From the NCBI GenBank assembly GCA_016748015.1, contig JAAOMT010000591.1, positions 410,335-474,334 of the forward strand: 64,000 bases of DNA, given 5' to 3'. Made by a program: the position numbers and the translations under genes. A model generated the notes under the pieces. That model ran no database searches. It was not told the origin of the DNA and saw only the letters and a list, made by a program, of their open reading frames with translations. The stretch comes from Geosiphon pyriformis uo1. Taxonomy: Eukaryota > Fungi > Glomeromycota. Every line of letters begins with the position of its first letter. Position 1 is the stretch's first letter. Positions 2,351-50,858 of this stretch are shown here, piece by piece.

Positions 2351-5300
2351 AATATCTTTCACGAATCAGCTTAGAAGATATGATTATAAGTTATTATAAC
2401 ATTTTACCAGCTTCACTTTCTAGGTTTACAAATTGCCATTGAAATAATCCAGGTTCATTTTGTGAATTGAATTTGGTCAAAAATAGATAATCTTAAATTT
2501 CAGTGATTGAATATTCAATTATTTAATTGTATCATTAAAAATCTTAAAATTCGATTCCTTAAAAATGTTTTTTTTTATTTATTTATTATTAAGTATAAAA
2601 ATTTCTTTTTGATAACAATTGCTAATAACTATAACAAAATTGGTTAAAATATCAGATTAAAGCAAAAAATTTAAAAATAAATTTATAAATATAATAATAA
2701 TTAAAACAAGTAATATTTGTTAAATATAATGTTTAATTAAAATTTATAAAATTAAAAAATTAACACATATAATATTATATATTTCAAATTTAATTGGCTT
2801 AAATGGCTAATTATGTATGACAAATACATAAACTGTATTTGTTATAAAATATATATATATTGTATATTGCGTTTAAAGCAGTAAAAAATTAAATAATTTT
2901 TTTGAAATACTTAAAAAAAAAATTATTAATGTTTTTAAACCATATTAACTATCTTAAATTTTGATTTTTTAAAAATAAGACTTTGGTTTTTTTGATGTTT
3001 TACTAATTTTCCATTATTAATATTAATTATAATGCTTAATTTTATTTTAATTATAAACAATAATTTGTTTTAAATAATAATAATAATAACATATTTGCCA
3101 AATTTAATTTAATATTGTTAATATAATAAATTTGATTGGTTTTAAAATTTAAACAAGTTATATTTTAATATGCAATTTTATTTAATTATAAAAATTGGGT
3201 TAATAAAATAAAAACTAAAGCATTTTTTTTTGTTTTTTAAAAACACTATTGGTTTTAAAAGCAATTAAAAAATAATTATTAATTATTAAAATTTTTTAAA
3301 TAAATGCTTTTTTTAATATTTAATATTATCATAAAAATTAAAATAATTTATATTAAGATTATAATTTAGTTTTTATATGATTTTATTAATATAAAATTGG
3401 TTATTAAAAATTATTTTAAGTTTTTTTGTATTTTAAATTTTTTTAACTATTGTTATTAATATTAAACTTGTTAAATTTTTATTATTATTTTTACATTATA
3501 AATTTGGTTTTGTTTTTTTTTTTAGTTTTTATAATGTTTTTTGGAATATTTTACTAATAATATTAAAATACTTTTGAAATTTTTAGTAAAATTATTGATA
3601 TTAAAGTTTATTAATTTGTAATAATATATTATTGTTTATTTTAAAATTATTCTTGTTTGTTAATTAATTTAAAAATAGTTAAAAGTAATACATATAACAA
3701 ATTAATAATTTAACAGTTATAAAAAGTAATTTAATATTATAATAGCTTAATAAAAAAAGAAAATATCTTTTAAAATTAATTTTATTAAAAATTATTAACT
3801 TATTAGAAGAATAAAAAATAATATTAAACTTTATAAATTATAATTAAATAATATAAATTAAACCAAATACAGTTAAAAACAATTTATGCTATACAAATAA
3901 AAAACCATAAATAAAAATATTAATATTAATATTAATATTTAATAAGCTTTAATATTTCTGTTTTTTATAAAAAAAGCTTTTTACAAGTAAACTGCTTAAA
4001 AAAAACTAGCAAAAAAATTTTAGATATTGTAAAAACTTTTAAAATTAATAAAAATTTTTAAAAACTAATATTTTATAATAAATACTAAAAGTTATATTGT
4101 TTTAAATTATTTATTATAATATTTAAATTTATTGTTATATTTAATATAAAAAAATACTAATAATTAAATTAGTTTGATAATTATTGATTATATTATTATT
4201 AAATAATTAATCTAAAAAAAGTATTAATGTTTTAATAAATAACTTTATAATATTGTATTTTTATAGTCATATTTATTTAAATAAAATATTTAATAAGTTA
4301 TTTTTTTATGTTTCGGTTTTTTTATTGTATAATTAAATTAATACTTAATAATTTGTTATTAAGAATTTGATATATTAAAATAAAATTAATTATACTATTT
4401 TTTTAATAATTATATAATAATTATATAATTTTTTTTGGTTAAATTAAGAATTGTATTATCAACTATTTTTATTTTTTTGGTATAAAATAAAATTAAGTAT
4501 TATATTAATATATATTAATATAAAAGATAAATAATTTATTTAAATCAAATTATTTAAAAAGTAGTTTAATAATAAGTTTTTTAAGATTTTAAAAACTTTT
4601 TTGCTAATAAGTATATTAATAATAATTGATATTTTTTTAAAAAATAATAAAATAAAAAAACAATTTTGGAAAGATTTTGGAAAAATTTCTTATAATAAAT
4701 AATTAAATTAAAAAAAATATAACTATATTTATTATTTGCTTAATTAATTAAATTTTTTTGATTTTGGCTAAATTAAAAATACTATTTTTTATAATAAAAT
4801 ATCTAAATAATTAAATAAAATTAATTTTGAGATTTATTTTGAAATTTGTATTTCTTAAAAGAATAAAAAAATTTTATAAATATTTATTAATTCAAAAAAC
4901 ATAACTGTAAATTTATATGTATTATATTAAATAATAAAAGTAGTTTATAACGATTTTTAAAATCTATTTATACTTATTAAAATTTAGTAATTAAAAGAAA
5001 AATATCATTTTTAAATTTGTTTAAACTATTTTCAATTATTAAAAAAAGATATAAACTTTTTTAATAATAGTAATTAATTCATAATAATTAATATAAAAAT
5101 ATAAAATTTATTTTTAAAAATTATTATTATTAAAAAAGTTAATTTATTCTTGGTTTTTTAAATAAACTCTAATTTTTTTTGATTTTTTTTTTGATTAATT
5201 TATTATTATAATAATAAAACCAATATATTTTTAAATAAATAAAATCTTTTTTTTTATGGTTTTAATAAAATATTTAATTAGATTTTTTTATGTATTAATA

Positions 5301-8300
5301 AAATATAATTCTATTATTAATTATAATATAAAATTTAAAATTTTCAAAATAATTGTAATTTATATATTTTTTATAGTATTTTAAAAACTAAATTAAATTA
5401 AATTTATACAAAAAAACTTATTCAAAAAAAATATTTGTGTAAAGTTATAGTTAAAATATTATTAAAAAAATAAATTGGTTTATTTATAAAACAATATTAT
5501 TAATTTATTAATAATTTTATTATTTACAAAAAAATTTAATAATATATTAAATATATTATTTTTAAGCAAAAAATTTAATTCATATTTTATTTTAAGATTT
5601 ATTATTTTTTTATATAAATTACTAATTATATAATTAAATAGATTAATATTTTGGTTAATTACAAGAATTTTATTATTAAACTCGATTTTTAAAAAAGTAA
5701 AAACACCAATTAACTTAATAATTAAAGTAATTAAAACATTAATAGATTTAACAACAAACTTAATTAATAAAATTAATTCAAATTTTAAGAAAATTAACTT
5801 AAAATTAATTAAAAAATTTATAATAGCAATAATAACAAAAACAGCCAAAAAAACAACAACAAAAAAAGCAATAAAACAAAAACTTAACATAGAATTTGGT
5901 ATTAATAAAACAAAATTTAAAAACTTTAAAATTATTTGTAAACTTAAAAAAATTTTATAATTAATAGCCAAATAATTTAAACTCTAATACTTAAAACATT
6001 GCTAATAGTCAAAGTTTTTTTATTAAATACAATACTTTTTTAAAATACTAGTTTTTATAATTATAGCTTTCAAATTATTACAAATACCAAAATAATAATA
6101 ATATATTGTAGTTACTAAACAAAATTAAAAAATAAAAAATAAAACAAATATAATTACTAATTTAAAAAACCAAATTATTAATTTCAAAAGCAATACAGCC
6201 AAAAAAAAATTAATCAATTTGGTTTTAAACATATTATAAAAAAAATTTTTTTTTAATTTGTAAAAAGATAATTTTTATGTTGTTTTTATTATTAAATTAA
6301 TTAACAAACAAAAACGGCTATAATTACACCAAAAAATTTAAAATACATAATAACATATTATAAATACTAAAAAATTTTAAAACAATTTAAATAACTTTAT
6401 TAAAAACATTAAAAACTATTTTAATATTAGCAACAAACATATTTTAAAACATATTATACAGAATAATAATAACAAAAAAAATGTAAATTCAGAAATCATC
6501 ATAAATTTAATAATTTTAAAAATAAAAAAAATAAAATCAACAAGTTTAATTTATAATTTTTTAAAAAGTAATAGCAATATATTTTTTTTATATATAATAA
6601 TTTTTGTTTAAATTTTAATATTTAATAAATATATAAATAAAGAATATATATACAAAAATTTAATATTTAGTATGTCTTTTTTTTATATTAATACAATCTT
6701 AAATTTGATTTTATATATTAGTAATACAGTTAAAAATAGTCTTATTAAACAAATTATTCTGTTTTTTTTTCGATTATTGTAATAAAAATTATCTAAAAAA
6801 TATTTTTTTTTGTGTATTATTATTATTTTAACGTTTTTTTAATATTTTGTTTAAGAATAATTCAAATATTCTTAATTAAATTAAGATTTAAACTATATAA
6901 TAACTAAGATAAAATGTAATTTGGCAATTGTATCTTAAAATCTGTGTAAATGGTTTTTAAAGTATGTTTTAAATTATTATCATATTTGAAAATTCAATAT
7001 TATTATCTATATATACTAATTGTATTATAATATAAATTTTTATTAAAAATTTTATAATAAAAATATTAGTTTATATTTTCTATAAAAATATATATTTCAA
7101 TTTTTCTATATACACAAATGTTTTTTATATATAAAGTTAAATAAATGTTTTACTATTAATATAATAGATTTATTTAAATAAAATTAAGCCAATATTTCGA
7201 AATATTTATAAAATTATTTTATTTAAAAATACTATTTTTGCACTAATTATTATTAAAATATTTTTAAGTTCATATTAATTGGTTTTGTTTAACTTGTATA
7301 GTATATAAAAATATATATTTTGATAAAACAACTATATAATTAAGCCTAAAAAGTTTATTATAAATAGTCTATTTACTTATTTTAATCTTAAGATATGTTT
7401 TTGTAAGTTATGTCTTAATTTTAATTGTTGTAGTAAAATGATTTTAATTTACAATTTTTTTAATTTGGTAACACATTTTTAGTAAAGTTTTTTGTGAATG
7501 ATTTGAATAATAAATTACTCGAATTTGACTATTTTAATAATATTGTCTTATATATTATTTACAAAAGCAAAGAAAAATATTAGTTTTTCGAAATATTTTA
7601 ATTAAAGTTTAATAATTTTATTGTTAAAATCTCTTAATAACTTTATAATTAAATTTTACAGAAATATTTTTTATTATAAAAAATAAAATATGTTATTGAT
7701 TAAAACAATTTTGTTTTAAAAAATAAAAACAATAGTATTAAATATATATACATATAAATTATAACTTAAAATATCTTAACAATAGCTAATTAAATAATAA
7801 TAAAAATTATATACTGCAAAAATTACTTTACTATTGTTTTTCAAAAGTACTGTAAAAAACAATATTTTTTTATCTTTTTTTAAACCATTAATTTTATTAC
7901 TAGAAAAATTTAATCTTGAAGTAACTGTACTATATTTTATTAGACAGAAAAATTTTTTAAAAAAAAAATAATATAACATATATATATGGCTTAAAAAAGT
8001 AGAAAAAATTGTTCAAGTAAATAATTAAAACATACAAAAAACAATCTAAGCACTACTTTTTTTTTGAAAAAAATTATTAGTATTAGAGTTTAAAAAAAAC
8101 CTATTGGTTTTATTTAATTTAAAAACTTAATTTTAAAATATTTTATTAATTCAAATACTATAATACAATTCTAAATAATATTATTAAGTAAAGCATAAAT
8201 AAAATAGTTACCTAATATTTTAATTTAACCGAATTTATTATTAAATTAAAGTTATAAAAATAAAATATTATACTAATGTTTAGATTTTAAATCAATTTAT

Positions 8301-9879
8301 TAGAAAATTAAAAAACAGTATTCTAAAAAAAATATGCTTTATTTATCTTAATTTGTTAATAAAAGCTATTATATTTTCTAGAACTTTTAAATCAACTAAA
8401 AAAAATTAATTATAGCCAAATAATTAACATAATAATAAAACAAAATAAAAATATTAGAAAAAAAATAGTTTAATTAAAAAAACAACTCTTTAAAAAAATA
8501 AAAAGTTATTTTATCTTATATTTAAAAAGAAACAATATATACTAAACATCATAAAAATACAATTAAAGATTTAATGACAACCAATAAAATTAATTAATAT
8601 AACAAAAATATAAAATGAAAATATATGTTTGCTATTATTATAAATATGTAAAATATTTAATTAGCCAATTTTAAGCCAGATAATATTATTAATTATTATT
8701 ATAAAAGATAATAGTTTTACAACTATTTTTTCTTTTAAGTTAAAAAAATAAAACTATTTTTAATAGAGCAGTATTAGACAAAAAATATTTAATTACTGCT
8801 ATATATATAGAAATAATAGTAAACAATATCTTAATTAAATTTATTTTAAATAATAAATATACTAAAAGCATTATAATATTTTAATTAATAAACCAATTAA
8901 GTTTTATAGTTAATTATATCACAATATCTTAAATTATAATAGTTAATAAAAGTATTAAACTATTTTATAATAAAATTAATTTGTTTTTTTTTAAATTAAA
9001 TAATATAATAATAATTACAAAAGTATTAATAATAAATATTATACAATATTAAATATTAATAAGCAATAATTAATTGATAAAAGCAAATATTATTTTAAAT
9101 TAAACTATTCAAAAAAATTTTATTAATTATAATAATTATTATACAGCTATTTGTAACTGTTTTCAAAAATTTAACAATATTTAAAAATTTACTTTTAAAT
9201 ACAAAAAAACTCAGTATTGTTAGCAATTAAAACTTATTAATTCTTATAAATTAATAATAATAAAACAAAACTATTAATTATATTAACTTAAATAAGCAAA
9301 AAAAAATTGAATAGAGCTAAATAACCAATTAAAAAAATAATTAACAATCCAGACCAAAGCTAGAATACTCAATATACTATAAAAACGTTTATTTATAATA
9401 ATATATAATACATTAAATAAAAATTCCAGAAGTTTAATTTACTATTATTATAACTATTACATTAAAAAAAAATTATTTAAAAAAACATGATAAATAGAAT
9501 TAACAAAAATAAAAACAATATTTTACTTAAATTAACATTTATCTTTACAAAAATTGGCTTATTTTATGCTAAAATCAATATTATAAAAAGTATTAATACA
9601 AAAAAAACCTTAAAATTTAAAATTTAACAATACTAAAATTAATTAATAAGTTAATAAAACTTATTTAATAAACTTAAGTTAAAAAATTTGTACCCTATAC
9701 TAACTTAGAACAAAAAATTAATATTTGATACTTTGATAATAAGCACTTAAAAATAAGATTTAAAAGAACTTATTTAACTAATATTAAATTTAATTTATAA
9801 TATCCAAAAAATTAATTCATAATATTATTATTTAGAAGTATTATTAAAATTAATTTAAAAATAATAATTGAAATTTTAC

Positions 9880-10150
9880 CAAAAATAATAGTTTAAATAA
9901 TATTATAATCAAGCTTTGCAAAAAAAAGAAATAAATGTTTAAAGAAAAATAATTAACTTTAAATATACAAAAAATTTAATGGTTTTATTACAAAACAATT
10001 TAGAAAAACTATATATTATTAAACCTAAAAAAAAAATTACACAAACAATTTTTTTACTATTAATAAAAATTACAAAATTCATATTAATAAAAAATCAAAA
10101 AAAATAATATAAATAATAATAAAAACTTTATAGTTTTGGATCAATAAAAA
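9880..10150 (+). pseudogene. Fossil dUTPase of an eroded gypsy pol
   Basis: aagctttgcaaaaaaaagaaataaatg...ttattacaaaacaatttagaaaaactatatattatt...aaattacacaaacaattttt...agttttggatcaa aligns with dUTPase DNA at ~46780-47025 (LQNDSEK..EKIAQAIFLPL..FGST). Confidence 0.7.
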
Positions 10151-10222
10151 AAAAATTAAAACAAATTTAATTAAAACAACAAAAAAAATATTAATTAATT
10201 AAAATTAAACAGCTTATTATGC

Positions 10223-13200
10223 TATTACAGATAAGGTTAATGAGACATTGTAGTAATATTTAGTGTTCTAAATTTAGATAATAAAAGCTTAAAAGTCTCT
10301 ATTTTAAATACTTAAAATAAGTTGTTTAATATTAGTCTTTGAAAGTTTTTTGCTAATTTTACTCATAAAGTTCTTTAGTTATAAGCACAAAAAAGTATTC
10401 AGCTATTTATAGTTTAAGTGTGTAAGCTATTTTTTTCAAGCTAGTTGAGTATAGTCACTAAAATCTAATAATGTCTTTTTACTCTTTTGGTAAGTTAACA
10501 AAATAATGTTAATATCTAATTCTAAAAAGAGCTTCCTTTTTTTACCAGACTATTACAAAGTCTATTTTTAGATAGTTAATTTTGCAATGTTGTCATTCCA
10601 CAAAAAAAAAAAAAGAAATAAAAGAAATTAGTATTGTTAATTACTGTAATCAAGAGCAATTGGTTTAAGTTGTTATTTGTTCAAGACATTTTATGCTAAG
10701 AACATCTGGCCAAGAACAAAAGTAAAAGAATAAATAATTTGGTTTAAATATAAGATTCAGAAATTATAAATAAATGATTTTTGGTTTTAATAATTTCTTT
10801 ATTTAAGATAATGTAAATATATAAATAAGATAGATCTAATAGATATAAGTAAAAAATATATTTTTTATCTGATTATTTTTTGTTGTTCTTTTTTTACTGT
10901 TAAATTTACTTATTTTTATATATATTTTTAGTTTTACAAACTTGTTTTTTGATTGTTTGTTATTATTAGTTATTGTTTGTTATTTCTGTTGTTGCTTTGT
11001 TTTTTTATACTGTAACTAATTATTTTATATTATAGTTAATTATTTTGTGTTATTTTGTATTATTACATTTTTTTATGTTATTATGTTTTTTAATCACGTT
11101 TTTTTAATATCTTTTGAATTTGTTTTTTCTACTTAGGTAATATTATCTTTTTTTTTAGAATTGAGCTTTTGCAAAATTATATATATTTGCAAAAATTGTT
11201 TTTTAGTATAGTGTTCAATTATTGTATTAAGTATTGCTTTTTGTAGATCTTTAAACTGTGTATTAGTTATTTGTTTTATACTGTTAACTATAATAGTTTT
11301 TAGTATATTATCTAACAGTATAGCTGAACAGTATTTAAAGACTGTATACAATTAGTAGTTGCTTTATAGTGTAATGTTAAGTTGTTTTTTTTTATGAATT
11401 CTTTTACTTATTTGATAACTTCTTTGTTGAAGATTTGTCTGTTGAGATTTTTATATAGTGTCTTTAATTTTAGTTGTCCACCAATTTTAAAAAACCAGTA
11501 GACTAGTAAAAGTTTTTTTTTCTATTCTCTAATATTTTTTGGTGTCTATTCTTTTATGTTAAGTAGTTTAATTTTCTAAAAAAAACCTTGTTGGATTTTT
11601 TTTTATATTAGAGACCACATATCTTTTTTTTTAAATTATTTATAGGAATAAAAACACTTAATTTAGTTGAACTTTTGCCCATTGTTACCAGACAAAATTA
11701 GAGATATTATTTAGCATGAAATTATCTTTATAATTCCTATCATTAATTAGCATATATTATTATTCAAATTATCACTTATTACATTAGCAAAATGTCCAAA
11801 ATTATCATTTAATTAATAACCCAATTTGCACATAACATAAATGTAACCTAATTACAATGATCAATCATGCAATACCCCGAACTATGTAACATTCAAAAAG
11901 TTTGCTGAAATTTGTAGAAATTTGCCAAAATAATTAATAGTTTACTGAAATATCTAATAGTTTGCAGAAATAACTTGTAGTTTGCCAAAATATATCTTTA
12001 GTTCAGCGAAATTGTAGAAAAGAGCAAAGTTCAAGTTCATAAAATAGTGTTATGACAAGTTGTATAAAAAAAAAGCTTCTCTCTTCGAGAAAATGTATCT
12101 TACTTTAGATTTATCACTTAGAACTATTCCTACACACACAAAAAGAAATAAATATCAAATAATTCAAAAAACCAAATTTTTTAAATATTACACTTGGAAA
12201 ATCTCCAAAACCCAACTAACATTTCGAAATTAATTAGCTACCAATTTCAGTAAACTGTTAGTGACTTCAGGCCTGGATAGAAAACACTTCTCTTGATAAA
12301 ATTCTATTTCTTTTACATTTCTTTTATTTTTTTTTTCTTTTCTTATTACAATCATTAAGGTAGTCTACAGACAAGATTCCTGTAGAAGAGTTGACTTTCA
12401 CAGTAAAGTAACTACACATTTTTAGTAAGCTTCCAGACGAGCAATTCCTGGGAAAGAGTTGACATTTACTACAACGTAACTACACAAGTAACTGGCATGG
12501 AATTGGCTATTCCACTTATAAACCCAGCAGTTCAAATTATAGGAGATAATTTGAAGATAAATTCAGTTATCGGAGGTTCAAACACTTCCTATAGTTGTGA
12601 ATTAACAGCATTACAATGAACATACAAGAGCTAAGAAGAGACCAAAAACCTCTGATAATACCATTCTTTTTTTGCATAAATTTCTGTATCATATTTTTTT
12701 ATTATTAATTGTAATTTCTATTGGTATTGTGAATTGTTGAATGGTTTTAAATAATTGTTTTAAAAGTTTTAAAATTTGATTTAAAAAGTCTATGTTGAAA
12801 GTTCTATTGTCTTTTTTTTTGCTGTTTTGGTTTTTATATATACTTAAATTTGTGATTTAATTTATTATTAATAAACTATATTTTAATAACAATAATTGGT
12901 TTTAGATCTTGTGATATATTTTTTGGTCTGATTAATATAATTTGTATTTCTAGTTAAGATACAAATAATGATGACTCTTGATTGATATGATAAATTTTTA
13001 GTCGATTTTTATGCACTATTTTTTTTAAAATTTTGTTCTCTGATTATAATTTGTATACTTTATTGCCTAAAACTTTGTGTATATAAAATGATTCATCTCA
13101 TTTTGGATCAAATTTTCAATTTTATTGTTTTTTAGCTTTAGTATGATGTAATAATACTCTGTTTTTAATCTTAAATTTAGCTAGTTGGTTGGATAAGCAA

Positions 13201-13460
13201 TTATTATGTATCTTTTTTTGTTATTTCTGAGTATTATTAATATTGTTAGCTGTTATTCTATAATTGTTTTCTAATGTTTCTATTAGTTGGTATGTTTTTT
13301 GATATAAAGTAGCTTCAAAATTCTCTTTAGTAATTAATTTTGTTGAAAAAGAAGATATTTTTTATTCAATAAGTAGAATGGCTTATCTTTTATAAACTAG
13401 TTCAAATAGTATAAACTGATTAGTATTTTGCTTTAGTATTTAATATACAAATAATACAGA
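10223..13460 (-). mobile_element. Eroded 3' half of a family-A-like gypsy element: integrase C-terminus (~13460-12900), ORF3 (~12800-11133, split by a solo LTR), 3' LTR (11142-10223)
   Basis: Decayed KKQWSGKFDPKWD coding DNA near 13100. ORF3 motifs EITINNKKI, YWFFKIGGQL and LYTVFKYC. Eroded PPT followed by TATTACC (=TGTTACC) at 11142; LTR end tattacag at 10223. Confidence 0.7.
11683..12660 (+). mobile_element. Solo LTR of family B with 4-bp TSD CCAT
   Basis: Starts TGTTACCAG and ends cctctgataata (eroded cctccggtaaca). Homologous along its length to the LTR at 61871-62823. CCAT on both sides (11679-11682, 12661-12664). Confidence 0.9.
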
Positions 13461-13479
13461 AGGTATGAATAAAAAAACA

Positions 13480-15065
13480 ATAAAATAAAAAATATAATTA
13501 TAAATAAAATAGACTATTTTATATATATAGACTTTTAAAAAATAAATATATAAGTTAAAACTAAATAATAAAGTTTTAAAAAAAGTTATACATAATAATA
13601 AACCAATTTTAAATTTTTAATTTCACAAATTAGTATATAATTTTTTTTAATTAATTCAAAAAATAATTCTTAAAACTTAAAATTTTTATATTTTTTTAGA
13701 AAAATAAAAAAAATTATTAAAATTATTTCTTAACTTATTTATAATAATTATTAAAAATTAAATTAATTATATTTAAAAAAATTTATTATAACTTTAATAA
13801 TAAATTTACAAAATTATTACTTTTATAAAAGAAACACAAAAAATTATTTTGAAATTTACTTATTAAAAATTTTAAAACAAGCTTTAAAAAAAACTTATTA
13901 TTTATTTGTATTAATATTTCTCCAATATTACAATTTAATAAAAACTTTAATTGTATTTTAATAAACAAAACAATAAATATACACTAATTTATAAATATTT
14001 TATATAAAAAAAGCATTTTATAAAAAAAACTGGAATTTAAAACAACAAATTTTATTTTAAAAGTTATTTAAAAGCAAATACATAACAAATTCAAAATAAT
14101 AATTAGATTAACATTTATTACAAAATTAAAGTTACTTAAAGACTTTATAATCTATTTTATATTTGTAAAAATATTTTATAAAATTTAGTTTTATAATTTT
14201 TAAAGATTTAATATATTAAAAAGCTTATAAAATTAAAATTTTAACAATTTTTAAACCAAATTGTTTTAATAATCTTAGATAATTATTTAGAATTACAGAT
14301 AATATTTGGATTTTAATAAAATTTAGTTTTAAAAAAAAGATTATATTATTAATAAAAATTTTAAATTATTTATTATTACAAAATTATTCTTATAATTTTT
14401 AACATATATTATTATTTTAATTTATTATTTATTATTTTATTAAATTATTAAATATTATTATTTAATTAATAATTTAATTTGTACAATATACAAATATAAC
14501 TAATTGTAATAATAAAATTATGTAATACTTTAAACTATATAATATTCAAAAATTTGCCAAAATATTTAAAAATTTAATAAAAAATTTAATAGTTTATTAA
14601 AATAATTAATGATTTATAAAAATAATTTGTAATTTGCCAAAATATATTTTTAATTTACCAAAATATTAACAAAAAAAAGTGCTAAATTATAAAATAATAT
14701 TACAATAAATTGTATAAAAAAAAGCTTTTTTTTTAAAAAAAAAAAATTTTTAAAATTTTAATTTAGAATAACCAATTAATTACTGCAAATTAATTCAAAT
14801 AAATTTATGTTTTGAAAACCAATAAATTTTTTTATAATTATTATTGTTTAAAACTCAAAATTTTAATTAATATTTTAAAATTAATTAATTACCAATTTTA
14901 ATAATTACTTAATTAATTTTAAATTTAAATTAAAAACATTTTTTTATTTTTTATATTTAAGTAGCTTATAATTAAGACATTTTGTAAAAATATTGATTTT
15001 TATAGCAAAATAACTATATATTATTAAAAAGTTTACAAACAAGAATTTTTGTAAAAAAGTTGAAT
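13480..15065 (+). mobile_element. Highly eroded family-B 3' end: ORF3 remnant, PPT and LTR starting ~14344
   Basis: 14311-14360 atttggattttaataaaatttagttttaaaaaaaagattatattatt is the eroded form of gcttggactttgatggagctcagtcttgaggaggagattatgttacc (reverse complement of ~62815-62860). Downstream sequence aligns with LTR B. Confidence 0.8.
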
Positions 15066-17899
15066 TAGTTTTAATAATTATGTTAAAGAAAATAAAATAA
15101 ATTGTTTTTAAAATCTAATTTTAAATTAATAAAATCATATAAAAATTAAAACACAGTTTTAATGTAATATAATTTTTGTAATAATATTAAATACTAAAAT
15201 AAAAAACTATTTATTCAAAAAAATTTAATAAATAATTTTTTTTTTAAATATTATTAAAACCAATAATGTTTTTTAAAAATAAAAAAAAGTATTCTAGTTT
15301 TTATCTTATTAATTTAATTATTATAATTAAATATTTTATTTTTAAAACTGGTAATAATTAATTAAAATTTATATTAAACAATATAATTAAATATTAATTC
15401 AAGTTAAATTTAACCAATATATCATTGTTATTAATCTTTAAAACAAAAAAAAACTTAATATTTTAAAAACAAAAATAACAAAAAAAAAATTAATAGCAGT
15501 TTAATAACCAGTTTGTAATTAAAAACTCTGAAACTCTTTACATAATAATAATTATATTAAGACTATTTTTAACATGTTACTTTGAAAAAACTTTTACTTA
15601 AAACTAAAAATAGTGTTTTTTTTAACAACTAAAAGCTGCTTAGTTTTATTATTGTTTTAATAGTGGTCAAAAAATTGTAAAAGAATTGTTTTTTTTTGCT
15701 TTTTTATAATTTTTATAAATTCAATAATCATATTCAAACTTGAAAAACTGTGCCCCAACCACAATATGCTTTAATAACTCGCTACACTGCTCTGACGATT
15801 GTTTAATTTTAATAGATACACCCAAGGCTTTCAGAGCTTCCATGCACCTCTTGAACCCCAAAATAAACTTTGAAATCATAAAGACTACATTGGTCAAGAT
15901 GTTAACTTATAATGCATGGAAATGCTATTGTTTTTAGAAGAATAGTGGAATACCGAATTCTCTAACTTTTTATTTCAGAAAGAGCAACAAAAAAAGCTTT
16001 AGCTTTTATACCAGCAAACAGCAAACATATGAAGACAGCTCCTTCATTTCACTAGAATCAATTCTCTTTTCAGCCCAGTTCTCAAAACGTTTCGCACTTT
16101 TTTTCGGTGGATGTGACTCCAGCCAGCCAGCCAGCATGATCAATTATTTTAGACGACGAGAAATCCTTGGTTTGAGAGTTTGTGCTTTCTTCAAGTTGCC
16201 TGCATAGTTACTGAGATTTTCTGTCATCAGCCCAGCGGAATTCTCAGTTTTGCCAATGTGCTCGTAGTTGCTAATATACTACCGAGAAGGTTAGGATTCT
16301 TTAATATGCGCATACATAATGCACGTATGTTATTACCCTTAAATTCCAGAATAGTTACAATGATTGGTGACTCCAAAAGTTTTTATCATGGCTATGTACA
16401 AAGGATTGTACTTGACATATGATATTATAATCACCAGCGACGAAGCCGGCTCCATAGTGGTGGGGTTGATGATGTCTCATATACAAAAACCTACGGGCGT
16501 GATCCCTTATGTATTGTGTGAAATAGATCTCCCCACATTTCGACGACTCCTAACTTGGTGCCCCTAGCACAAACACCCCTTCCACTTTTTGTCCTAACGA
16601 ACGATCCGCCAGTTTCGGGCGTCGGGACAAAATCCGTTAAGCAGCGGGCACGAATGCACCTCCCACTGTTGAAGACGGTAATACTTCATTTGTTACAACA
16701 TACATTATGTAAACAGGTAGCTATAAACAGCACATACGGATAATACTCGGGATTCGCCAATTAGATTCATGATGAAATGGAGAAGCAATGACCCAAAGGT
16801 CGATTCCTGGACACTATGCAACAACGGATGAGTGACCTCCTTGCTCTTGGGAAATACCCATAGAGCTGCTGGTGGCTTTTATCACCACGAAAACAAGTCA
16901 TCTGTTTTATCGACAGGTGAGTAGAGATCCCCGTATCACGTGGGAAGTTCCTTATTTTCTTCTCTAAACGATAAATATCTTCGCATGACCAAGTTTCCTG
17001 GCTTCATCTATCAGCGACGTTCAATTCGGCTCGGTCCTGGAAATTTCGGGCTTTTGGAACATCGTTCAATCCTGCTGTGAAATCGACTAGCACTTGATGT
17101 TTGATAAATTCTTGTCGCAATTTTCCCGTGTAAGTTAAGAAACATAATGATTTCCACTCAAAGGTGTCACTTGAGCGAAATAATCCACCGCATCGAGTCT
17201 TGTGTCATGGATGTTGTTTCCTGCAAACATGAACAGATTGGACGCTTTATTCAAACCATAGCAAAAGTTGAGAGTGTGAAAAAATCAAAATACAGGAAAT
17301 GGAGGAAACGGAGCATATTCTTACAAGCAAGAACGGAAACCAGGCAAATGAAGTGCGAAAAACGTCAAATAAAGGCAACAGGGACGAGCGAAGCAAATGG
17401 GGTGGTCGACGAAAGGAGCAAAAAACAGAATTACGTGCGTGTGTTGACCACACCGCATGATCACTTTGTCTGGTTTTGTTGTATGTCCCATAAATACAGG
17501 TTGTTCACTATTAGACTAATTTAAAACTTTGATTTCCTTGAATCCGTTAATGATTAAACTACATTGGAACTTTGACGTATACCGTAAATACCAAAATATT
17601 ATAAAATACAATTTTCTTGATCTTTTTCGCAATGGAGTGCAAGTTGAACCGATTTGTAAAATTTCCCAAACAAAAATATTATGTCTTGGTGCTTTTGAAC
17701 TGTATGAACATCGACGTTATCCCTGAGATACAACATTACAGAATGAATATATGGATTTGCACTTAATAGAGAAAAATGGCAAACGTAATAAAAACTTACT
17801 ATATTTTCCGTGCGCGCGTATTTTTTCCTCCATCCTTGAGCTACAAGATGTACTCTCTCTGTGTAATTTAACATATTTAATATGTTTATTTCTATAACT

Positions 17900-20350
17900 T
17901 CGTCTTATTAACTACGATTAGCCTTGAAAATGGTTTGCTTACCTTCATAATCACCCAAATTTATGCCTCTTTTTTTTAGAGGTGATTTCGTTTCTTCCGA
18001 TTGCTGAAAATGATCAAAAACCGATTAATGAACCTAGAAATTGTGATAAGAGGCGAGGCCCTAACAACATACCTCTCGATCTTCCTTGTCCAAATCCTGG
18101 ATTTCCTTGGGTGTTCTTTCGGCAAGTTTAGGCTTCATTTAGGGTTGTTTAAGAAATGTGATTATCTTCACATCTTTTCTGATAGACGAGAAATTGTTAA
18201 AGTAACTCACCGTTATGTTTTCTTTGTCTGCATCTCTATTTTTTTTGAATCCGGATTTCCATTTCGAAAAATTTATAGTGCTTTTAGAAGTTATTGTTGG
18301 CTTGAATAATTTATGACGTGCGTCAGTTTCTCTTTGCCTGGACTAAAAGAGAAAACTTCAACAAAACTCACCTCTTGAATTTTTCCTTTATCTAAAACGC
18401 GCAATTTCTTGATAAATCGTTTTTCATTAAAATCCTCGTTTTTTGTTTGACTCATTTCATGCGTCTGTTCTATCGCTTGTTCGCATGGAAAATTGGTCGA
18501 TTCTAAACTCTCTAAACAAAGTGGCACTGTCTCCGGGGCATCAGACGTGATGCTTTGGTCTGTCTTCTGAGTTTGGGTGAGAACACTTTCTTCCGTTATT
18601 ACTTTGGGAGATGTTTTAGGAGCAAAAAATTTTGATATGGTTTCTGAGTTCTCAGGTGATGGACCTTTATTCGAGGCAAAACTGGTGCGTAGCGGAAGCC
18701 GTTTATCTTGATAGTTCGTCTTTAATCGTTCAAGAAAAAAAAATTCCAATGAGATTTTGGGCGATTCCAATCATAAAGCTCCATAGTACAAAATTACCTT
18801 GCTCTTGATCGAAAATAACCTTTGATTTTCGCATTTTATCGGTTTTTTCGTTATCGGATCGAGTTCCCCAAGTGCAATACCTTGAGCAACATTTGGACTA
18901 ATATCACTGAAAATAATGGTTGATCGTGTTTAAGGTTATCAATAGCAAATTTCGTATAGCGTGAGTAGATTCGAATTCAAGATTAAAATCCGATTTGAAA
19001 GGATACGCTCCAATGAAATCAAGTTTCTCAAAATCTAATTGCTCGGGTACGGGGTTGAAGGTAACCACACGTTGAGTAGTTAAATCAAAGACCTTTTGAT
19101 GTAGGAAGGTCAATTCTGCACGAATAAAGTTCTCTTCATAGTCTGAAGGAACGTGATATTTATCATGCAATTGCAAAAATTTTATCACCTGAATCGATTC
19201 AAAATTTCAGATTTAATTATTATAACTCAATAATTAAAGAAAACGGCATGAAAAAAAACGCCCCACCTTCTCTGCGGTGCGATATTTTTTTATAAATTGA
19301 TAAGCCTTTTTAATGCCAATTCCATGAATAGATCGTAGATAATCACAACCAGACAATATTGCCATCTGACGAAAATTTCTATCCGTCCAACCGACCATAG
19401 AAAATTCATGGGAGGCACCAAAATTATCTCGACTTATTTCCTCTCCATTACCATATTGATCCATCTTGAAAATGACCTTTTTTTGCAACAAATAAGTAAG
19501 ATTATCAGATTGATTCAAAGAATTAGATTGAAAAAGTTACAATTACGTTCTGACAGCCAAAAACCAATAGATCAGAATCTTCGGTGATAACAGCGGCAAC
19601 CATATGGTTTTTTTCAAGGTAGGCTAATTGCGCATCAGCTTCATACGGAGCAACGACGTATTGAACTTGCTCAGCCTTTAAAGCCTAATTTAACGTGATT
19701 AGAATTTTCCAATTAAGGAATTCGAAAGGAAAAATATAACTGAAGTTAAACATCCTCTTACCAAAATTAATTGATAAACCATCTCTGAAGTGACCTCAAT
19801 GGCTTTTGAGAAACAGTCACGGGCCTTATCTTTCAATCCTTTTTTCAAAAATTCCATCCCTTGACGATAATGTTCTGCACGTTGCCTTGTTATTTAGAAA
19901 AGTTTAAAAACTCGGATAGGTTTTTCATAGATTATTGATCGGAATGCACAATCTAACACATACGCCTTTCGCTCTTCTTTAGTACGAGCCTTAGCCGGCA
20001 AATTTCCACCATCGAACACAATTAAAGGGCAAACATTGTAGAATTTGAGCATACGAACACGGTGCATGAAAAAGTCAATATATCTTTATTGGTGATAAAT
20101 ACAGACATAGGGATTTATTATTGATTGTAAAAATTCAAAGTTTTATTCACTCTATTAAAGCTTGAATATGGAAAAAGAACCAAACACACCTTTTTGTTGG
20201 CTGGTTGGTAGCTAGCTCCAAGGCACAAGAATGAGCACCTTTGTGAAGCCAGCAATGCCCGTCAACCCCAACAGTGCACCATGCATATTTTTCTATAGAT
20301 ATTTCTTGTTTTATTGGTTTCAGAATTTGAAGAAGACCTTGAACACCCAT
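17900..20350 (-). CDS. EXO1: Exonuclease 1 (XPG/Rad2 family), multi-exon; 3' end approximate
   Basis: [30 protein letters not shown]|[77 protein letters not shown]. Confidence 0.95.
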
Positions 20351-20498
20351 GGTAAGATTGTTGAAGCGTCGAGAAGGACAAAAATAGCAAAAATCTTAAA
20401 CGCCTAACATTTTATCTATGTTTGATCTTATTAAGATTTTCTATCCCTATTTGCTATCAACTCTTAAAACCTATTTTACCGTTAGAGAATAGGTCACG

Positions 20499-20539
20499 GC
20501 GCGTCTTTAAAGGAAATGATAAATGTTGAAAAGACGCGT
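20499..20539. promoter_or_regulatory. MCB-like boxes upstream of EXO1 (GCGCGT 20499, ACGCGT 20534)
   Basis: Sequence match 150-190 bp upstream of the ATG. ACGCGT is the fungal MBF G1/S element. Confidence 0.5.
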
Positions 20540-21009
20540 TATTTTTATGATCACTGAATCGGCAATACGGCAGCCACGCCGAACTAAATGCTATACCGAA
20601 TCTGCAATTTTTGATCATGCATGCATAGACAATCAACGCATATTAAAAATAGCCATCAAGATGACTCGGAGCATTTTGACCTCCTATTTTCCCGGCAGTG
20701 AATCCTAAAAGTCTCATCATTCAATGAGTTTTAAAAAATAGTATTCACAGGAAATTTTTGATTTTTTCATTAAGTTTTACGAATACTACAAAATGCATTA
20801 CCCTTTGATTTTGAACTAATTTTACAAACGATCAAGATTTTTTATACCCTTCTATTCACATAAAGAAAGAAAAGCAATAAATAAATAACCAGTTGTAATT
20901 ACCCAGAAAAAATGATTCAAAATTTTTTTTGACAATTCTTACTGTTGGTCAAGTAGGAGTAAATCGTTCATGCTTCAAAATATAGCACTAATAGAAAATT
21001 TTAACATGA

Positions 21010-22282
21010 TTATTGCCTTACAGGGTCCCCATTAGATCTCGTATTATCGGCTTTATAAGGAACAATCACCAGTTCACCACGATGTCGAGCAATTTCAGTA
21101 GACATACTTGACACAGGAGGATCTTCAAGACGTGTCAAACCTGTGTCAATCACAGATCCGTGATTGTTGTCCCCTCTTCGTTGTGTACCATTTACATTGT
21201 TTTTTTTTGTCGGTGGTGACTCAAATTCAAACTGCCGATTATGAATTTCGATTTCATGATGATGATTATGATTAAAAGAATTAAAGTTCTTTTTTGTCGA
21301 TACAAACAAATCTCCCACTCGATTTGAGGTATCATCCAACGGATCAGAATTTTCAACCAAGGATAAAAATCTCGCCAATGTTGATGCTCCTGCTTTTAAA
21401 GGAGGAAGTGGAGGTGTAGAAGGCTTTGGTAAAAGTCGTGATTCCAACGTGTTAGATAATCCAGAAGTTCCATTTGTAAATAGTGGAGGTTTTGAATTTT
21501 GTGATGGATGATTTTCGGTCTTCTGGGTTCCATGATTTCCGGGTATATTGTTTTCGGAAAAAAATGAAATCTGACATGCAGCATAGCCCCCAGAAGTTAG
21601 AAGTTTTTCAAGTTGATTTTCCATTTTTGCCAATTCTTCAAGGAGTTTCTTATAATGCTGCAGCGCCTCTAAAGTTATGATATACTTATCTTCTGGCAAT
21701 GCTATGAATTGTTGTTGGAGAATATACTTCTGCAATTATTATATTCGTGATTGGGATGATGAATAGAAGAAAATAGAAGGGTTTCAAGAAAACCAGGAGC
21801 CCTTCGCACAAAGTAAAGAATTGCAACAATCAAAAAGTAATCTATTACCATTGTTAAGAGGTCACGAGCTGCTTTATCACTATTTTTCGACACCAAATAG
21901 TAAAAAGGAACAAGCTTATTGATTTTTGCGTAAAAAGGGGTCAACTGTTCCATTGCTGAAGGATAACGCTTTTTTTGTTCTTCCGAGAGCCCACTTTCAA
22001 TTAACCGAATTTTGACTATTAAACGAGTGAATAACAATTCTTTCTTAATAAAGTTTGAATCGGTTCAAAGTTCACATGCAGGTTTAGTAAGCAATATAGC
22101 AAACCTCCAGCACTTCGAACCTCTTGGTCAATTTGTATCACTCTTTGTTGAGCTTGTTGATGTTGGGCTGCGCTGATAACTAATACCGAGGGAAAGGGTT
22201 GAGGAAGTATTGTAAAAGAAGTCGATTCTACTGATAGTTTAGCAGAAAACACTGGGGTTTTCGGCGTGTGAAAATTAGACAT
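21010..22282 (-). CDS. Spliced gene with a Med15_fungi (Gal11)-like helical domain and a low-complexity C-terminus
   Basis: LSEEQKKRYPSAMEQLTPFYAKINKLVPFYYLVSKNSDKAARDLLTM|KYILQQQFIALPEDKYIITLEALQHYKKLLEE resembles the fungal Med15 domain pattern (recalled, not searched). Confidence 0.5.
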
Positions 22283-22759
22283 TTGTGAAATTATTGGAGC
22301 CAAAACTCTTAATGAAAGATTACAGATTGCACGTTTTTTGAACTGTCAGAGTAAAGAATTTCGAAGTTGTGAAGATGTTGTGTTTGTTGACATTTGGATT
22401 TTAGGTGAACTATCAGTGCATTATCAGTGATCATGCGATAAATTGGTGTAAGATCCAATGATCAAAAATAGTTAGCCCAGCGTATCTTTAAAAATGAATT
22501 AGCTGGATTAGCGTTAGAAACTTTACGGGTAATAGGAGCCTTGATAAGAGGATAAACCTGCCAGATAAGAAGACGGGGAAATTGAGACTTTCCTCGCAGG
22601 ATATTTTTTCACTCGTCTTAGCAGATCCACGTTTTCCCACGTGCAGAAATTAGAGACAAACATATAATGGGAATTAATTTTCGTTTTTAATCAATAAACT
22701 TCTTTTCACTTGAAACAGAAACAATTTTTCATGAATTTTTTTAAAAGAAACCTGGATAC

Positions 22760-23380
22760 ATAATTTTATTGAATTCTAAAAAAAACAAAAACCAAAAGGA
22801 TAAATTAAATTCATTTAATTTGGAATTTTATATGCAATATTATTTGTCAAACTTAATTTAAAAGCTGACTTTAATAATAATAATAAAAGAATGACTTTTA
22901 TTATTTGTATTATTTTTTACACTGGTTTTTAATTAATTATTTTTTAATTGCTTAAGTGAGCGTAGTTCTTTTACTATCTACTTTTATAGTACATGTAACT
23001 AGCCACCTTATTTTATATATTTTATTTTAATAATAAAAATGAATTTTAATTATTAATAATATAAATTTTTAATTTTAACATCACAAAAGTATTATTATTA
23101 TTATTATTATTATTAGTATGATTTGGTCCTAAAAAGTTGATACAACATATTAACAAAATAAAACTTTTTTTTATAATTAAATTTATTTATTATAACTTGT
23201 TTTTTACATAATAATTATACTTAAAACTGCTTAAAATATTCATTGTTTTTAAAATAATAAAAAGTAAAAAAAGCCATATCATTTTGTTTCAAATTATTTT
23301 AAAATGAAAAAATCATATTTAAACATATTAATAAACATTATAAAAATAAATTTTATAATCAATTAATACTTTGTTATAAT
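22760..23380. repeat. Small AT-eroded repeat remnant with a (TAT)n tract
   Basis: Same composition signature as the large AT blocks. Confidence 0.5.
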
Positions 23381-23633
23381 GAATTATATTGGTTCATCTC
23401 ATCATTCATGTGACACAGTGTACTATAGCCTAAAATGATTGGTTACAGGCAAAACGCGTCTCGAATTTTCGGCCTCACAATTTGACTCCATCATAATCTA
23501 TCAACCAATAAGCGACGGATTGTGGAAGGAGTCACCAGTCAGGTGACACAAAAATCCCATAAGCAGACATATCCGGGGCTTTTTGACTCCTTCACTCTCT
23601 TTATTTTCCTTCTTACTAAAAGCACAGATAACT

Positions 23634-24474
23634 ATGTTTGACGACCGCGTTCTTCATTATAACCAACAATACCATTATTTCGAATCAGAACAACCTGTAT
23701 CTAATCCTATTTTCGAGGGAGGCTGTTTTCTTTTCGTTGTATTAGGCATGATTTACGTGTTGTATGCTTATTTTATCCAACCACGCGGGTCTCCTCTGGT
23801 AAGTAAAACCTTATTTAATATATTTCTGATGCAAAGAATTCATAACTGTCGTGTTTTTTTCAGTATATCTAACAAACACATAATCAAAATTTACTCTGGT
23901 TAGGATACGAATCACGTAACAGGAACCGAGCCTTGGGCTCGTAACTACATTTATCCGAATCACTGGCGTGCAGGAACGATAACTGGGGTTTCGGAAAAGG
24001 TTGGAACACAATAATTATTCTGATTATCTTTATTTCCCGTCCATTCGGGTTTTTTGTCTCGTTCTTATTAATTTATGATATGATTATTATATACCCAAAA
24101 ATCTGATTTCGTGAATTGCAAATCCTCTTACAATAAACCTACTTTAGACAAGTCTTAGACAACATAAACTAACACCGCACCCCACCGCACCGGCTACTCC
24201 AATATTCTCATGCACCATAATCACTTATATTATTATCTATTGGGTTATACTGATCTGCCTATCATGGGTTTGGGGATTGCTATTTATGCCACCTCCAACA
24301 CCAACAGCTACTACGACAGTTGTAATTTTACCAACATCAACCACTACCTACTCACCTGCTAAGGCTGTGACAAAATCTTTCATTAGACCACAGTACGGTA
24401 CTGGAATTGGGTGGTTAACTCCTACGACTACTTATTCTCGGATACCTCCTGAAAAGCTTCCAGTTTTTTATTGA
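23634..24474 (+). CDS. Orphan ~195-aa protein with two TM helices and a Thr/Pro-rich C-terminus; exons 23634-23798, 23904-23999, 24148-24474
   Basis: Two phase-0 GT-AG introns join three open exons. TM segments GCFLFVVLGMIYVLYAYFI and IITYIIIYWVILICLSWVWGLLF. Confidence 0.65.
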
Positions 24475-24980
24475 AATAATAATTGTCGGTTTAAGGGAAA
24501 AATATCGAGAAATTCCCGCGATTTGGAAATTTATGTCTCAATAAAATCCTTAATTAAAATAATAGATAATACATCATATTTGTGAATTTCTATCGGGGGC
24601 CGTATTAACAAATAATGTACTTATGTAACAAACCTGGATTTCGAATGAGATAGTAAAGCAAATTAGCCCACCAAATTGCGTTTTGTTCTTCAAGGCTAGT
24701 CACCATCAGTTTTCAAATACTAGGTTGCTCGCTGGGAATGTTATTGCAAATGTGGTAATTAAAATCCTAAAGGAAAAGAGTTTGAGCGGTATCAAGACCA
24801 AATTTTGAACAGCTTAAAGGATCTGTGTGATAAATTGATATATTAATGAAATTATCACTTTCATACCAAACTTTATTGCATCCAAAATTGAGCACATTTT
24901 TATTCGAAAAATTTATTGCTACATCCAAAGTACATCTTATTATCCTTAAAGTAAAATAAAAAGTTTGATCGACAAGGAAT

Positions 24981-26850: not shown

Positions 26851-27028
26851 AATAAAAATAGTGGTAAAGAATTTAAAAGCCTAAGAAGATTGAAAAGTTC
26901 AACGGAACTAGTAATGCCTCAAGAGCAGCGGTAATTGGAGTCAAGTTAGTCAAGAGAGAAAGCAGAGAGCTATTATGAAAGATTGATTCGATTACACGCC
27001 TTTCCATTTCAGTCTTTTTTCCCCAAAG

Positions 27029-27046
27029 ACGCGTCAATTCACGCGT
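27029..27046. promoter_or_regulatory. Tandem MCB boxes (ACGCGT x2) upstream of the forkhead gene
   Basis: ACGCGT at 27029 and 27041, ~180 bp upstream of the ATG. Confidence 0.55.
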
Positions 27047-27630
27047 CGCATTTGATCAATTGAGATTCTCCTCTAATTTTCGCCACCATCCGCAGTTTTA
27101 AATACGCACTCAATTTCCATCTTGAGCGCGTTTTATGATCTGTAGAGAGTTACTCTATCGAAGAAGTCAAAACCTTTGCCATTCAATTTTCCAAAACATG
27201 CATTAATTTCAAAGTTTTTATCTGATCAGCACCTTCCAATCTCGTTTTTACCAAATAATGCGTCTAGTGACAAATAAGCATCACCTTTATTATCACGCCA
27301 GTTACAATCCCTTTGAGTAACCATCTTTAATGGGTAAGCGTCATAATTTTGGCTCCCAACTTGAACATTACTTAGGAGGATTCGACACACGCAACAACTT
27401 GCCAAAGACAAAGACGGCCTCTTTCCTTATTACGGGCTGTAACTGTCTGACTTATTGGTACCCTGTCCCACTAAGCTTATACTTTGAATCACCCATATGA
27501 GGTGATATAGTGTTTAAAAGAATCGGTGACCAAGTTACAGAATTTGTAATTTCTATTATTAGGAAAGAAAATCTAAAGTAAATAGCATCTATAATTTTCA
27601 GAGATTATCAGCCCTTCGGTCAAAACCTAT

Positions 27631-50804: not shown

Positions 50805-50858
50805 TCCATCAAAAGAATATATAAAGACATGGTAGATACAACAGGAAATATCAGAAAA

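Follow-up and report, generated by a model that had tools for sequence, protein, structure and literature searches.

Retrotransposon copies of Geosiphon pyriformis lose cytosines on both strands, fastest at CpG and TpC, a likely outcome of CG and non-CG methylation

On balance, our results favour a reading in which integrated retrotransposon copies of Geosiphon pyriformis (Glomeromycotina) gain C>T changes on both strands down to about 10% GC while genes are spared, likely through CG and non-CG methylation followed by deamination. The DNA analysed is a stretch of 64 kb, referred to here as the window. Cytosines are lost by far the fastest at CpG, next at TpC, and more slowly at CpC, ApC and GpC. 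Outside CpG the 3' base makes no difference, a T at +2 gives a weaker boost, and the context is identical in young and end-stage copies. The substrate elements have the Ty3/gypsy order of gag, protease, RT, RNase H and integrase, with the Pfam domains Ty3_capsid, Asp_protease, RVT_1, RT_RNaseH and rve, and their LTRs have TG..CA ends, a polypurine tract and a 4-bp target-site duplication. The process is best read as a gradual, repeat-confined C>T mutation, probably the result of CG plus DIM-2-type non-CG methylation.

The first-pass annotation had arranged four LTR copies as a three-stage erosion series, and the four copies are real and colinear. They are a young full LTR at 61871-62823 on the minus strand (28.0% GC), which is our main reference copy, the 5' half of a young LTR at 51184-51719 (+), a solo LTR at 11683-12660 (+) and a heavily eroded 3' LTR at 14344-15158 (+), the end of which is approximate (~15150). 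Self-BLAST of the window, done on N-free segments, adds a fifth, the 3' half of a young LTR at 53629-54068 (-); the remainder of each half copy lies inside an N gap. The reference copy has a polypurine tract upstream and, downstream, a motif resembling a primer-binding site, an identity that is putative; the 64-kb window contains no tRNA genes to compare with it.

The 14344 copy is nearly all A/T, as had been claimed (9% GC, 0 CpG, about 75% of C and G turned into T and A), and both erosion examples quoted are present in the sequence. Its match to the 11683 copy scores 226, whereas 200 local shuffles never exceed 45 and 34 other windows from AT blocks never exceed 40; the final quarter of the LTR lies beyond the alignment. 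Under symmetric scoring the change relative to the 11683 copy is directional, with C>T at 73/114 C and G>A at 53/94 G vs T>C at 10/263 and A>G at 7/322. The loss of C is 0.74 on the plus strand and 0.75 on the minus strand. The internal 3' sequence of this old element (13468-14343, +), which matches 62824-63980 colinearly in reverse complement, is also eroded and terminates in an eroded polypurine tract. Sampled words of 11683-15300 are present at 68% in one sequencing run, possibly the assembly's own sample, and the eroded copy rests on the assembly and those words. We judge an artefact unlikely, because the changes occur on both strands, are graded and are found in independent gene models too.

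The series does not hold as it was drawn, since its middle member is not an intermediate stage. The 11683 copy has the GC content of the young copy (28.2% vs 28.0%) and its differences over 937 columns are balanced (C>T 26 vs T>C 30, G>A 20 vs A>G 19); it is therefore an un-eroded member of a sister subfamily. This solo Ty3/gypsy LTR is flanked by a perfect 4-bp target-site duplication (CCAT, 11679-11682 and 12661-12664) and shows some private decay, its terminal CA being broken. The true intermediate is the half-eroded integrase/3' region that adjoins it at 12704-13473 (-), which belongs to another family, is homologous to 49693-50942 and has about 20% GC.

Young copies change in the same direction. 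Across the young copy pairs, 82 transitions stand against 4 transversions. The two young gag-region copies at 52189-53625 (+) and 59852-61291 (-) are 96.5% identical, with 47 transitions and one transversion, and among 30 polarised LTR changes 22 are GC>AT and 8 are AT>GC. Contigs aligned on 59740-64000 show C>T at 192 places, G>A at 224, A>G at 118, T>C at 55 and transversions at 101. A genome-wide amino-acid test covered 196 annotated Geosiphon copies in two element sets: 77 copies compared with the dUTPase-RT-RNase H ORF of a Ty3/gypsy element (46610-48664, +), and a replicate of 119 copies compared with an ORF with an aspartyl-protease match in another LTR element (39158-40264, +). The protein rows are annotated open-frame copies, from which end-stage copies, stops and CpG sites (0 CpG sites) are absent; 16 metagenome loci at 33-65% identity were left out. 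Per possible change, the non-CpG C>T type reaches 12.2% and 11.9% in the two sets, T>C 0.81% and 0.21%, and transversions 0.26% and 0.15%. The C>T type accounts for 1376/1711 (80%) and 2173/2375 (92%) of unambiguous single-step replacements, and the terminal branches of the tree carry 711 C>T-type changes vs 51 T>C and 47 transversions.

It had also been claimed that non-CpG cytosines are lost, and this is borne out: CpG makes up only 16 of the 463 scored C sites, and the removal of every CpG would bring the LTR from 28% to just 26-27% GC. Ordinary CpG decay depletes CpG in repeats and not in genes, as we find here (CpG o/e 0.11-0.29 in intact elements vs 0.94 in genes), and it leaves most of the C loss unexplained. 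In the young pairs 57 of the 82 transitions are outside CpG. CpG is changed at 25/61 sites there, and non-CpG cytosines at 32/259 for TC, 11/142 for CC, 9/230 for AC and 5/140 for GC (YC vs RC odds ratio 3.05, p 2.7e-4); by 3' base the counts are CA 22/343, CC 17/154 and CT 18/274. The old 14344 copy shows the same order, with losses of 0.84 at TC, 0.75 at CC, 0.69 at GC and 0.66 at AC (p 0.005) and no effect of the 3' base (p 0.38). In the protein test TC changes at 16.3% and 19.6% vs 7-12% in other contexts (p 5e-7, 3e-15), an excess that persists in a strict subset (p 6e-9), and the +1 base has no significant effect (p 0.15). A 5' bias cannot be seen in the most stringent three-way LTR subset (TC 23/27, AC 32/40), and the effect of T at +2 is not significant in the young DNA pairs alone (p 0.15).

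Simulation with rates taken from the young pairs or from the proteins reproduces the end-stage dinucleotides with an error of 0.13-0.28. Flat, CpG plus flat, CpA-RIP and UV models were rejected (error 1.2-3.4), the CpA-RIP model being the worst fit of those simulated. CpG decay plus a flat AT bias, the alternative to hypermutation that had been put forward at the outset, thus fails (2.15 vs 0.15). Geosiphon forms bladders at the soil surface, and UV damage at dipyrimidines with poor repair in heterochromatin would give a 5' pyrimidine bias such as we see. This explanation is already largely refuted by the contexts and we give it hardly any weight: cytosines between purines are heavily lost in the old copy (ACA 39/60, GCA 18/27), the dipyrimidine model has an error of 2.8, and there is a single CC>TT among the 82 transitions.

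By composition, the erosion signature is confined to repeats and host DNA lacks it. The host gene block at 15800-34400, our control, has 36.6% GC, a CpG o/e of 0.94, a TpC o/e of 1.06 and four-fold sites at 33% GC; the signature is absent from host-gene composition, a comparison that is compositional only. Two end-stage blocks stand apart from it. The block at 2550-10230 has about 11% GC, a TpC o/e of 0.55 and a GpC o/e of 2.7, and contains gag, protease and dUTPase relics at 8001-10228. The block at 34650-36900 has 10% GC, a TpC o/e of 0.51 and zero CpG, and has a diverged inverted segment in common with 5986-6400. A 530-bp island in gene-rich DNA (22850-23380; TpC 0.53, GpC 2.33) falls to 14% GC with sharp edges of less than 200 bp. 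No GC-intact counterpart of 2550-8000, of 34650-36900 or of the island is present within the window.

These data bear on the possibility that no repeat-specific process exists, and that a genome-wide, extremely C>T-biased spectrum takes dead transposons to equilibrium while selection or GC-biased gene conversion keeps up the GC of gene-rich DNA. The process does look gradual, and the end state of about 10% GC lies close to where the measured rates would equilibrate; the transition rates in transposons imply an equilibrium near 4% GC. Against this, host non-ORF DNA and four-fold sites stay at 32-36% GC with a CpG o/e of about 0.9 and no TpC deficit, and the edges of the island would be finer than expected of conversion landscapes. 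We therefore consider a purely genome-wide bias quite improbable.

A cytosine deaminase has to be weighed because of the TpC context. APOBEC- and DddA-type deaminases act in a 5' T context, which the 5' T preference and flat 3' base in Geosiphon resemble, TpC being the context of several deaminases. A TC-preferring DNA cytosine deaminase, or a failure of uracil repair in heterochromatin, might act on unmethylated C of silenced repeats, with CpG decay as a separate effect of methylation. Loss at CpG shows no 5' preference in the young pairs (ACG 7/17, CCG 4/12, GCG 5/10, TCG 9/22), which argues that two components are present. The bias is only two- to threefold and ApC and GpC are also lost. 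APOBEC editing of retroelement cDNA leaves single copies with G>A clustered on one strand, unlike the Geosiphon copies, in which both strands are hit at similar rates within each context class and clustered bursts are lacking. A search judged by title found no literature on such deaminases in these fungi. We regard a deaminase as an unlikely source of the erosion.

RIP mutations come in bursts with a per-copy strand bias. In Geosiphon the strand split is homogeneous among copies, both in the first set (77 copies, p 0.32) and in the replicate (117 copies, p 0.75). Per-copy C>T loads are unimodal at 3-21%; they are overdispersed (p 6e-5), and their correlation with the remaining changes is positive in one family (rho +0.65) and negative in the other (rho -0.34), a mixed picture for clock-like accumulation. 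The first-pass annotation had proposed RIP-like hypermutation. What stands is that repeats of this early-diverging fungus lose C and G through C>T/G>A changes well outside CpG. Strict RIP is not supported, for there is neither a CpA or TpCpG preference nor a strand burst, and the 1.4-kb gag-region pair persists at 96.5% identity within 10 kb. Near-identical repeats are common more generally, with 11,118/29,185 contig records at 95% identity or more on 59740-64000. A true RIP-like pathway could nevertheless be homology-triggered and RID-dependent, acting weakly in each round of a cryptic sexual or parasexual stage on a lineage-specific TpC target. It would account for relic blocks at 10% GC that end abruptly beside normal genes and for the predominance of the C>T type among the replacements; RID is reported for the AMF clade (PMC8298701), and targets are described as differing by lineage, for example TpCpG in Pucciniomycotina (PMC3318451). 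Given the missing strand bias, the surviving repeats and the poor fit of the CpA model, we think such a pathway improbable. Broad-context methylation, the second option named at the outset, fits better than strict RIP.

Under the methylation reading that we prefer, transposon DNA would carry 5mC at both CG and non-CG sites, and these methylated bases would be deaminated and fixed as T. The changes would arise on double-stranded DNA after insertion and build up across many generations rather than in a single burst. Loss at CpG may stem from DNMT1/DNMT5-type methylation, loss elsewhere from an enzyme of the DIM-2 or RID class that prefers T-C-N-T flanks, and targeting may come about through heterochromatin on repeats. 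The AMF clade is reported to carry DNMT1, DNMT2, DNMT5, DIM-2 and RID, and 32.5-49.5% of cytosines in R. irregularis to be methylated (PMC8298701). DIM2 is described as methylating CG and non-CG DNA, its flanking preference being left open (PMC11315935). In Zymoseptoria, mitotic C>T mutation of repeats is reported to be driven by Dim2 (PMC8016269). As a counterpoint, the Dim2 mutation-accumulation experiment described there gave CpA, not TpC.

We found no literature report of such erosion in Glomeromycotina. RIP signatures are described as missing from arbuscular mycorrhizal fungi and related lineages (PMC8647823, PMC7082362), and Rhizophagus irregularis, Gigaspora margarita and Jimgerdemannia are scored 'no_rip' in PMC12543289. 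Geosiphon shows an outcome on the scale of RIP in a context that CpA-based indices miss, the standard RIP indices being near neutral (TpA/ApT 1.07-1.09, substrate index 0.83-0.92); negative RIP surveys may therefore be method-bound. More tentatively, we suggest that Glomeromycotina possess a repeat-directed C>T mutator of their own, with a T-C-N-T target, that erodes transposons to 10% GC, escapes standard RIP indices and represents a mutagenic defence (RID/DIM-2-class or deaminase) predating the split between Mucoromycota and Dikarya. A methylome or an enzyme assay can be directly predicted to show the T-C-N-T context, and if the process is RID-dependent and tied to meiosis, it would bear on cryptic sex in the clade. 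In practice, LTR-based insertion dates will be inflated, and many transposon copies annotated as genes are corrupted.

Among known systems, Neurospora-type RIP (RID/DIM-2) is described as leaving sharply bounded AT-rich relics, with C:G>T:A changes in both strands and genes spared (PMC12543289). In Geosiphon, too, C:G>T:A transitions on both strands dominate repeat divergence, but a CpA/TpG preference, per-copy strand bursts and a depletion of long near-identical repeats are all lacking. The TpCpG hypermutation of Pucciniomycotina is alike in that a 5' T increases the C>T rate in repeats; a 3' G is reported to be required there and partial matches not to be elevated (PMC3318451), whereas in Geosiphon the 5' T acts at non-CpG sites and TpCpG does not stand far above VpCpG and TpCpH. 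The Dim2 mitotic mutation of Zymoseptoria tritici is similar in being dominated by C>T, as in Geosiphon repeats (82/86 young differences are transitions), transposon-confined, possibly cumulative and independent of a sexual cycle (PMC8016269). More than 98% of C>T is reported at CpA there, with CpG spared, whereas in Geosiphon CpG changes fastest, the 3' base has no further influence and a 5' T raises the rate; the enzyme has been shown in that ascomycete (PMC8016269), and in Geosiphon it is a candidate. Rhizophagus TEs are reported to carry CG methylation (PMC8647823), and 5mC on LTR elements in the phylum lies partly outside CG; these sources describe the methylation itself, and neither an erosion to 10% GC nor mutation in a TpC context (PMC11258239, PMC8647823). 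The CG and CHH methylation of Phycomyces transposons (PMC11258239) would provide a plausible substrate for the process in the same phylum, Mucoromycota.

Host genes (1-2450 and 15800-34400, 35-40% GC) are interspersed along the window with GC-intact Ty3/gypsy elements (37000-64000, with Pfam gag, protease, dUTPase, RT, RNase H and integrase domains) and blocks of 9-14% GC (2550-10230, 13450-15700 and 34650-36900, plus an island at 22850-23380). LTR elements are reported to make up 41.2% of the Geosiphon genome (PMC11952901). An RCC1-domain ORF (1088-2365, -) has 100% identity to an NCBI protein named Geosiphon pyriformis, the next matches being Ambispora at 48-50%. In the annotated 626 aa protein P0001 (128-2350, -) the RCC1 gene is joined to a tropomyosin-like gene downstream, which is probably a gene-model error because relatives are ~400 aa long. 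A gene with a forkhead domain and an extended low-complexity tail (24981-26880, -) adjoins an allantoicase/ureidoglycolate-lyase-like gene (~28000-29300). Exact or near-exact duplications beside N gaps (40660-41293, 49776-50628, 56676-57155, 62905-63474, and 54813-55062 versus 63751-64000) are probably scaffolding artefacts and were excluded from the mutation data. Short tandem arrays of 12-bp and 39-bp units lie within LTR-like ends of other families (36976-37046 and 41782-41914).

The first-pass annotation had described three stages of erosion of one LTR: young, intermediate at 11683-12660 (+) and nearly all A/T at 14344-15158 (+). The copies and both quoted sequence examples are present, and the 14344 copy is genuinely homologous: its match scores 226, whereas 200 shuffles reach no more than 45 and 34 other AT-rich windows no more than 40. 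This copy represents the 3' LTR of an old element, and the internal part of that element (13468-14343) can be aligned to 62824-63980. The 11683 copy, however, is not half-eroded: its GC content is 28.2% versus 28.0% in the young copy, and the changes between them are balanced (C>T 26, T>C 30, G>A 20, A>G 19). This solo LTR belongs to a sister subfamily and is flanked by an exact CCAT target duplication; the old copy has some indels in common with it and is no nearer to it at transversion-diagnostic sites (12 versus 15). The real middle stage lies next to it, at 12704-13473, in a segment of another family; this segment has ~20% GC, with changes at 28 of 68 C and at 42 of 76 G. On the + strand CCAT abuts two independent insertions of the LTR family (11679-11682 with 12661-12664, and 53625-53628), and a target preference is possible. 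The LTR at 61871-62823 (-) is preceded by a polypurine tract and followed by a primer-binding-like motif and gag; given this arrangement, it may be common to two tandem elements or be a recombination product.

In the cleanest block of the old element (344 columns) C>T affects 43 of 62 sites and G>A 38 of 51, against 5 of 99 for T>C, 7 of 132 for A>G and 16 transversions; symmetric and asymmetric alignment scoring gave the same picture. The share of C lost is equal on the two strands (0.74 and 0.75). The 3' base is nearly without effect (CA 0.72, CC 0.69, CT 0.78, CG 0.86; p 0.38), while the 5' base matters (TC 0.84, CC 0.75, GC 0.69, AC 0.66; p 0.005). Three further eroded segments have the same context pattern (p 0.004), their strands differing somewhat (0.61 versus 0.74). 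At sites with three-base agreement of both intact LTRs, a small subset near saturation, the 5' bias is not seen (TC 23/27, AC 32/40). A saturation-free comparison comes from young pairs of LTR copies (61871-62823, -; 51184-51719, +; 53629-54068, -) and gag regions (52189-53625, +; 59852-61291, -), with 82 transitions and 4 transversions over ~2.4 kb. With contexts read from the C/G-bearing copy, so that direction is assumed, CpG is changed at 25/61 and non-CpG sites at 32/259 (TC), 11/142 (CC), 9/230 (AC) and 5/140 (GC). Polarised with the 11683 outgroup, the young LTR changes are 22 GC>AT, 8 AT>GC and 5 unresolved.

The same bias is seen genome-wide in two protein sets: the dUTPase-RT-RNase H ORF at 46610-48664 (+), with 77 of 120 matches used (Geosiphon-annotated; the other 43, from other or unnamed sources, were dropped), and the aspartyl-protease ORF at 39158-40264 (+), with 119 of 120 (the window's own was dropped). 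We counted majority-residue replacements explicable by just one base change of the window codon, in 259/312 and 286/338 columns. Per copy and site, non-CpG C>T-type changes reach 12.2% and 11.9%; the reverse T>C stands at 0.81% and 0.21%, and transversions at 0.26% and 0.15% per possible change. Copies share ancestry and their counts are not independent; p-values were computed on sites. TC changes at 16.3% and 19.6%, versus 6.9-11.5% for AC, GC and CC (p 5e-7 and 3e-15), and the bias persists at sites whose 5' base is set by the amino acid and where a hidden decayed CpG is impossible (pooled p 6e-9). Over 366 pooled sites the rate rises with a T at -1 (p 6e-20) and with one at +2 (p 3e-8), and the base at +1 does not raise it (p 0.15); in all the DNA sets the +2 effect points the same way, non-significantly in the young pairs taken by themselves (p 0.15). 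A TC deaminase or a failure of repair is a doubtful source of this preference. In the first set radical replacements (D>N, S>L, E>K) equal or exceed V>I, A>T and T>I in frequency, and selection therefore does not explain the excess. Its tree is star-shaped (10.3 of terminal against 2.1 of internal length), and the terminal branches hold 711 changes of C>T type, 51 T>C and 47 transversions. At least 196 Geosiphon "hypothetical proteins" are decaying retrotransposon copies, inflating the gene count; the highly amplified family of the first set carries an in-frame dUTPase (PF00692) upstream of RT.

By composition, the process appears repeat-specific. A general C>T bias that selection or gene conversion offsets in genes is unlikely: transposon transition rates imply an equilibrium near 4% GC, and the host block has 33% GC at four-fold sites, 32-36% in non-ORF DNA, and CpG and TpC observed/expected ratios of 0.94 and 1.06. 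At block edges GC falls from ~40% to 15% across 150-250 bp.

Young and dead copies fit one process. We simulated decay of intact elements to 10.8% GC, each model in one run for the young-pair-rate series. Young-pair rates reproduce the AT-block dinucleotides (TpC 0.48 versus 0.54 observed, GpC 2.4 versus 2.74; error 0.15), and a hand-set TC-only model is also adequate (0.24). CpG decay plus a flat AT bias, which the first-pass annotation had named as an alternative, does not fit (2.15), nor does a context-free model (2.0). A UV-like model fails too (2.8), and UV is very improbable. A CpA-RIP model also fails (3.4). The earlier RIP-like reading is supported in part, as to strong repeat-associated C>T beyond CpG but not as to context, and weak true RIP seems a poor candidate. 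Protein-derived rates give errors of 0.13-0.28 in three runs, versus 1.2-1.7 and 2.7-3.0 for competing models. CpC is under-predicted (1.0-1.2 versus 1.44 observed). In the AT blocks (2700-10000, 13480-15600 and 34800-37000) the remaining G/C is concentrated in ACCA and GCCA (54 and 19, versus 271 and 133 in intact elements), whose persistence accompanies the CpC shortfall of a 5'-only model; TCCA (11), TCCT (0), GCCT (1) and CCCA (1) are nearly lost. The C>T load per transversion, calculated from counts, is ~30-fold in the old block and young pairs alike. Among protein copies the strand split is uniform (p 0.32 and 0.75) and loads are unimodal (3-21%) and mildly overdispersed; their correlation with other changes, positive for one set (+0.65) and negative for the other (-0.34), argues against a simple clock.

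From these data and the literature on other fungi, we lean slightly towards a reading in which silenced repeats would gather methylation-linked C>T cumulatively, the CpG component coming from CG methylation and the TpC component from a candidate non-CG enzyme of the DIM-2/RID class. Arbuscular mycorrhizal fungi (AMF) are reported to retain all five 5mC methyltransferase types, with 5mC at 32.5-49.5% in R. irregularis (PMC8298701); a 2026 review describes RID as restricted to Ascomycota (PMC13297926), which conflicts with that report. CG and CHH methylation is described on Phycomyces LTR elements (PMC11258239), and in repeats Dim2 by itself is reportedly sufficient for mitotic C>T mutation (PMC8016269).

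Dallaire et al. report no RIP signatures detected in Gigaspora or Mucoromycotina (PMC8647823; also PMC7082362). Badet and Croll describe such signatures as nearly confined to ascomycetes and assign no_rip to R. irregularis, G. margarita and Jimgerdemannia (PMC12543289); Geosiphon and Ambispora are absent from their species table. For Zoophthora an index-based RIP signal outside Dikarya is reported, with caveats (PMC11105155). Our literature search, mostly at listing level and outside the Geosiphon genome paper, returned no account of erosion of this kind in Geosiphon, nor of the TpC context. The Geosiphon C>T process is real, strong, genome-wide and repeat-associated, and its context is previously undescribed, in a lineage considered to have no RIP. 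Although this context did not fit in tests against TpCpG hypermutation, RIP or Dim2-type repeat mutation, the erosion resembles RIP in its end state and Dim2-type mutation in the way it works.
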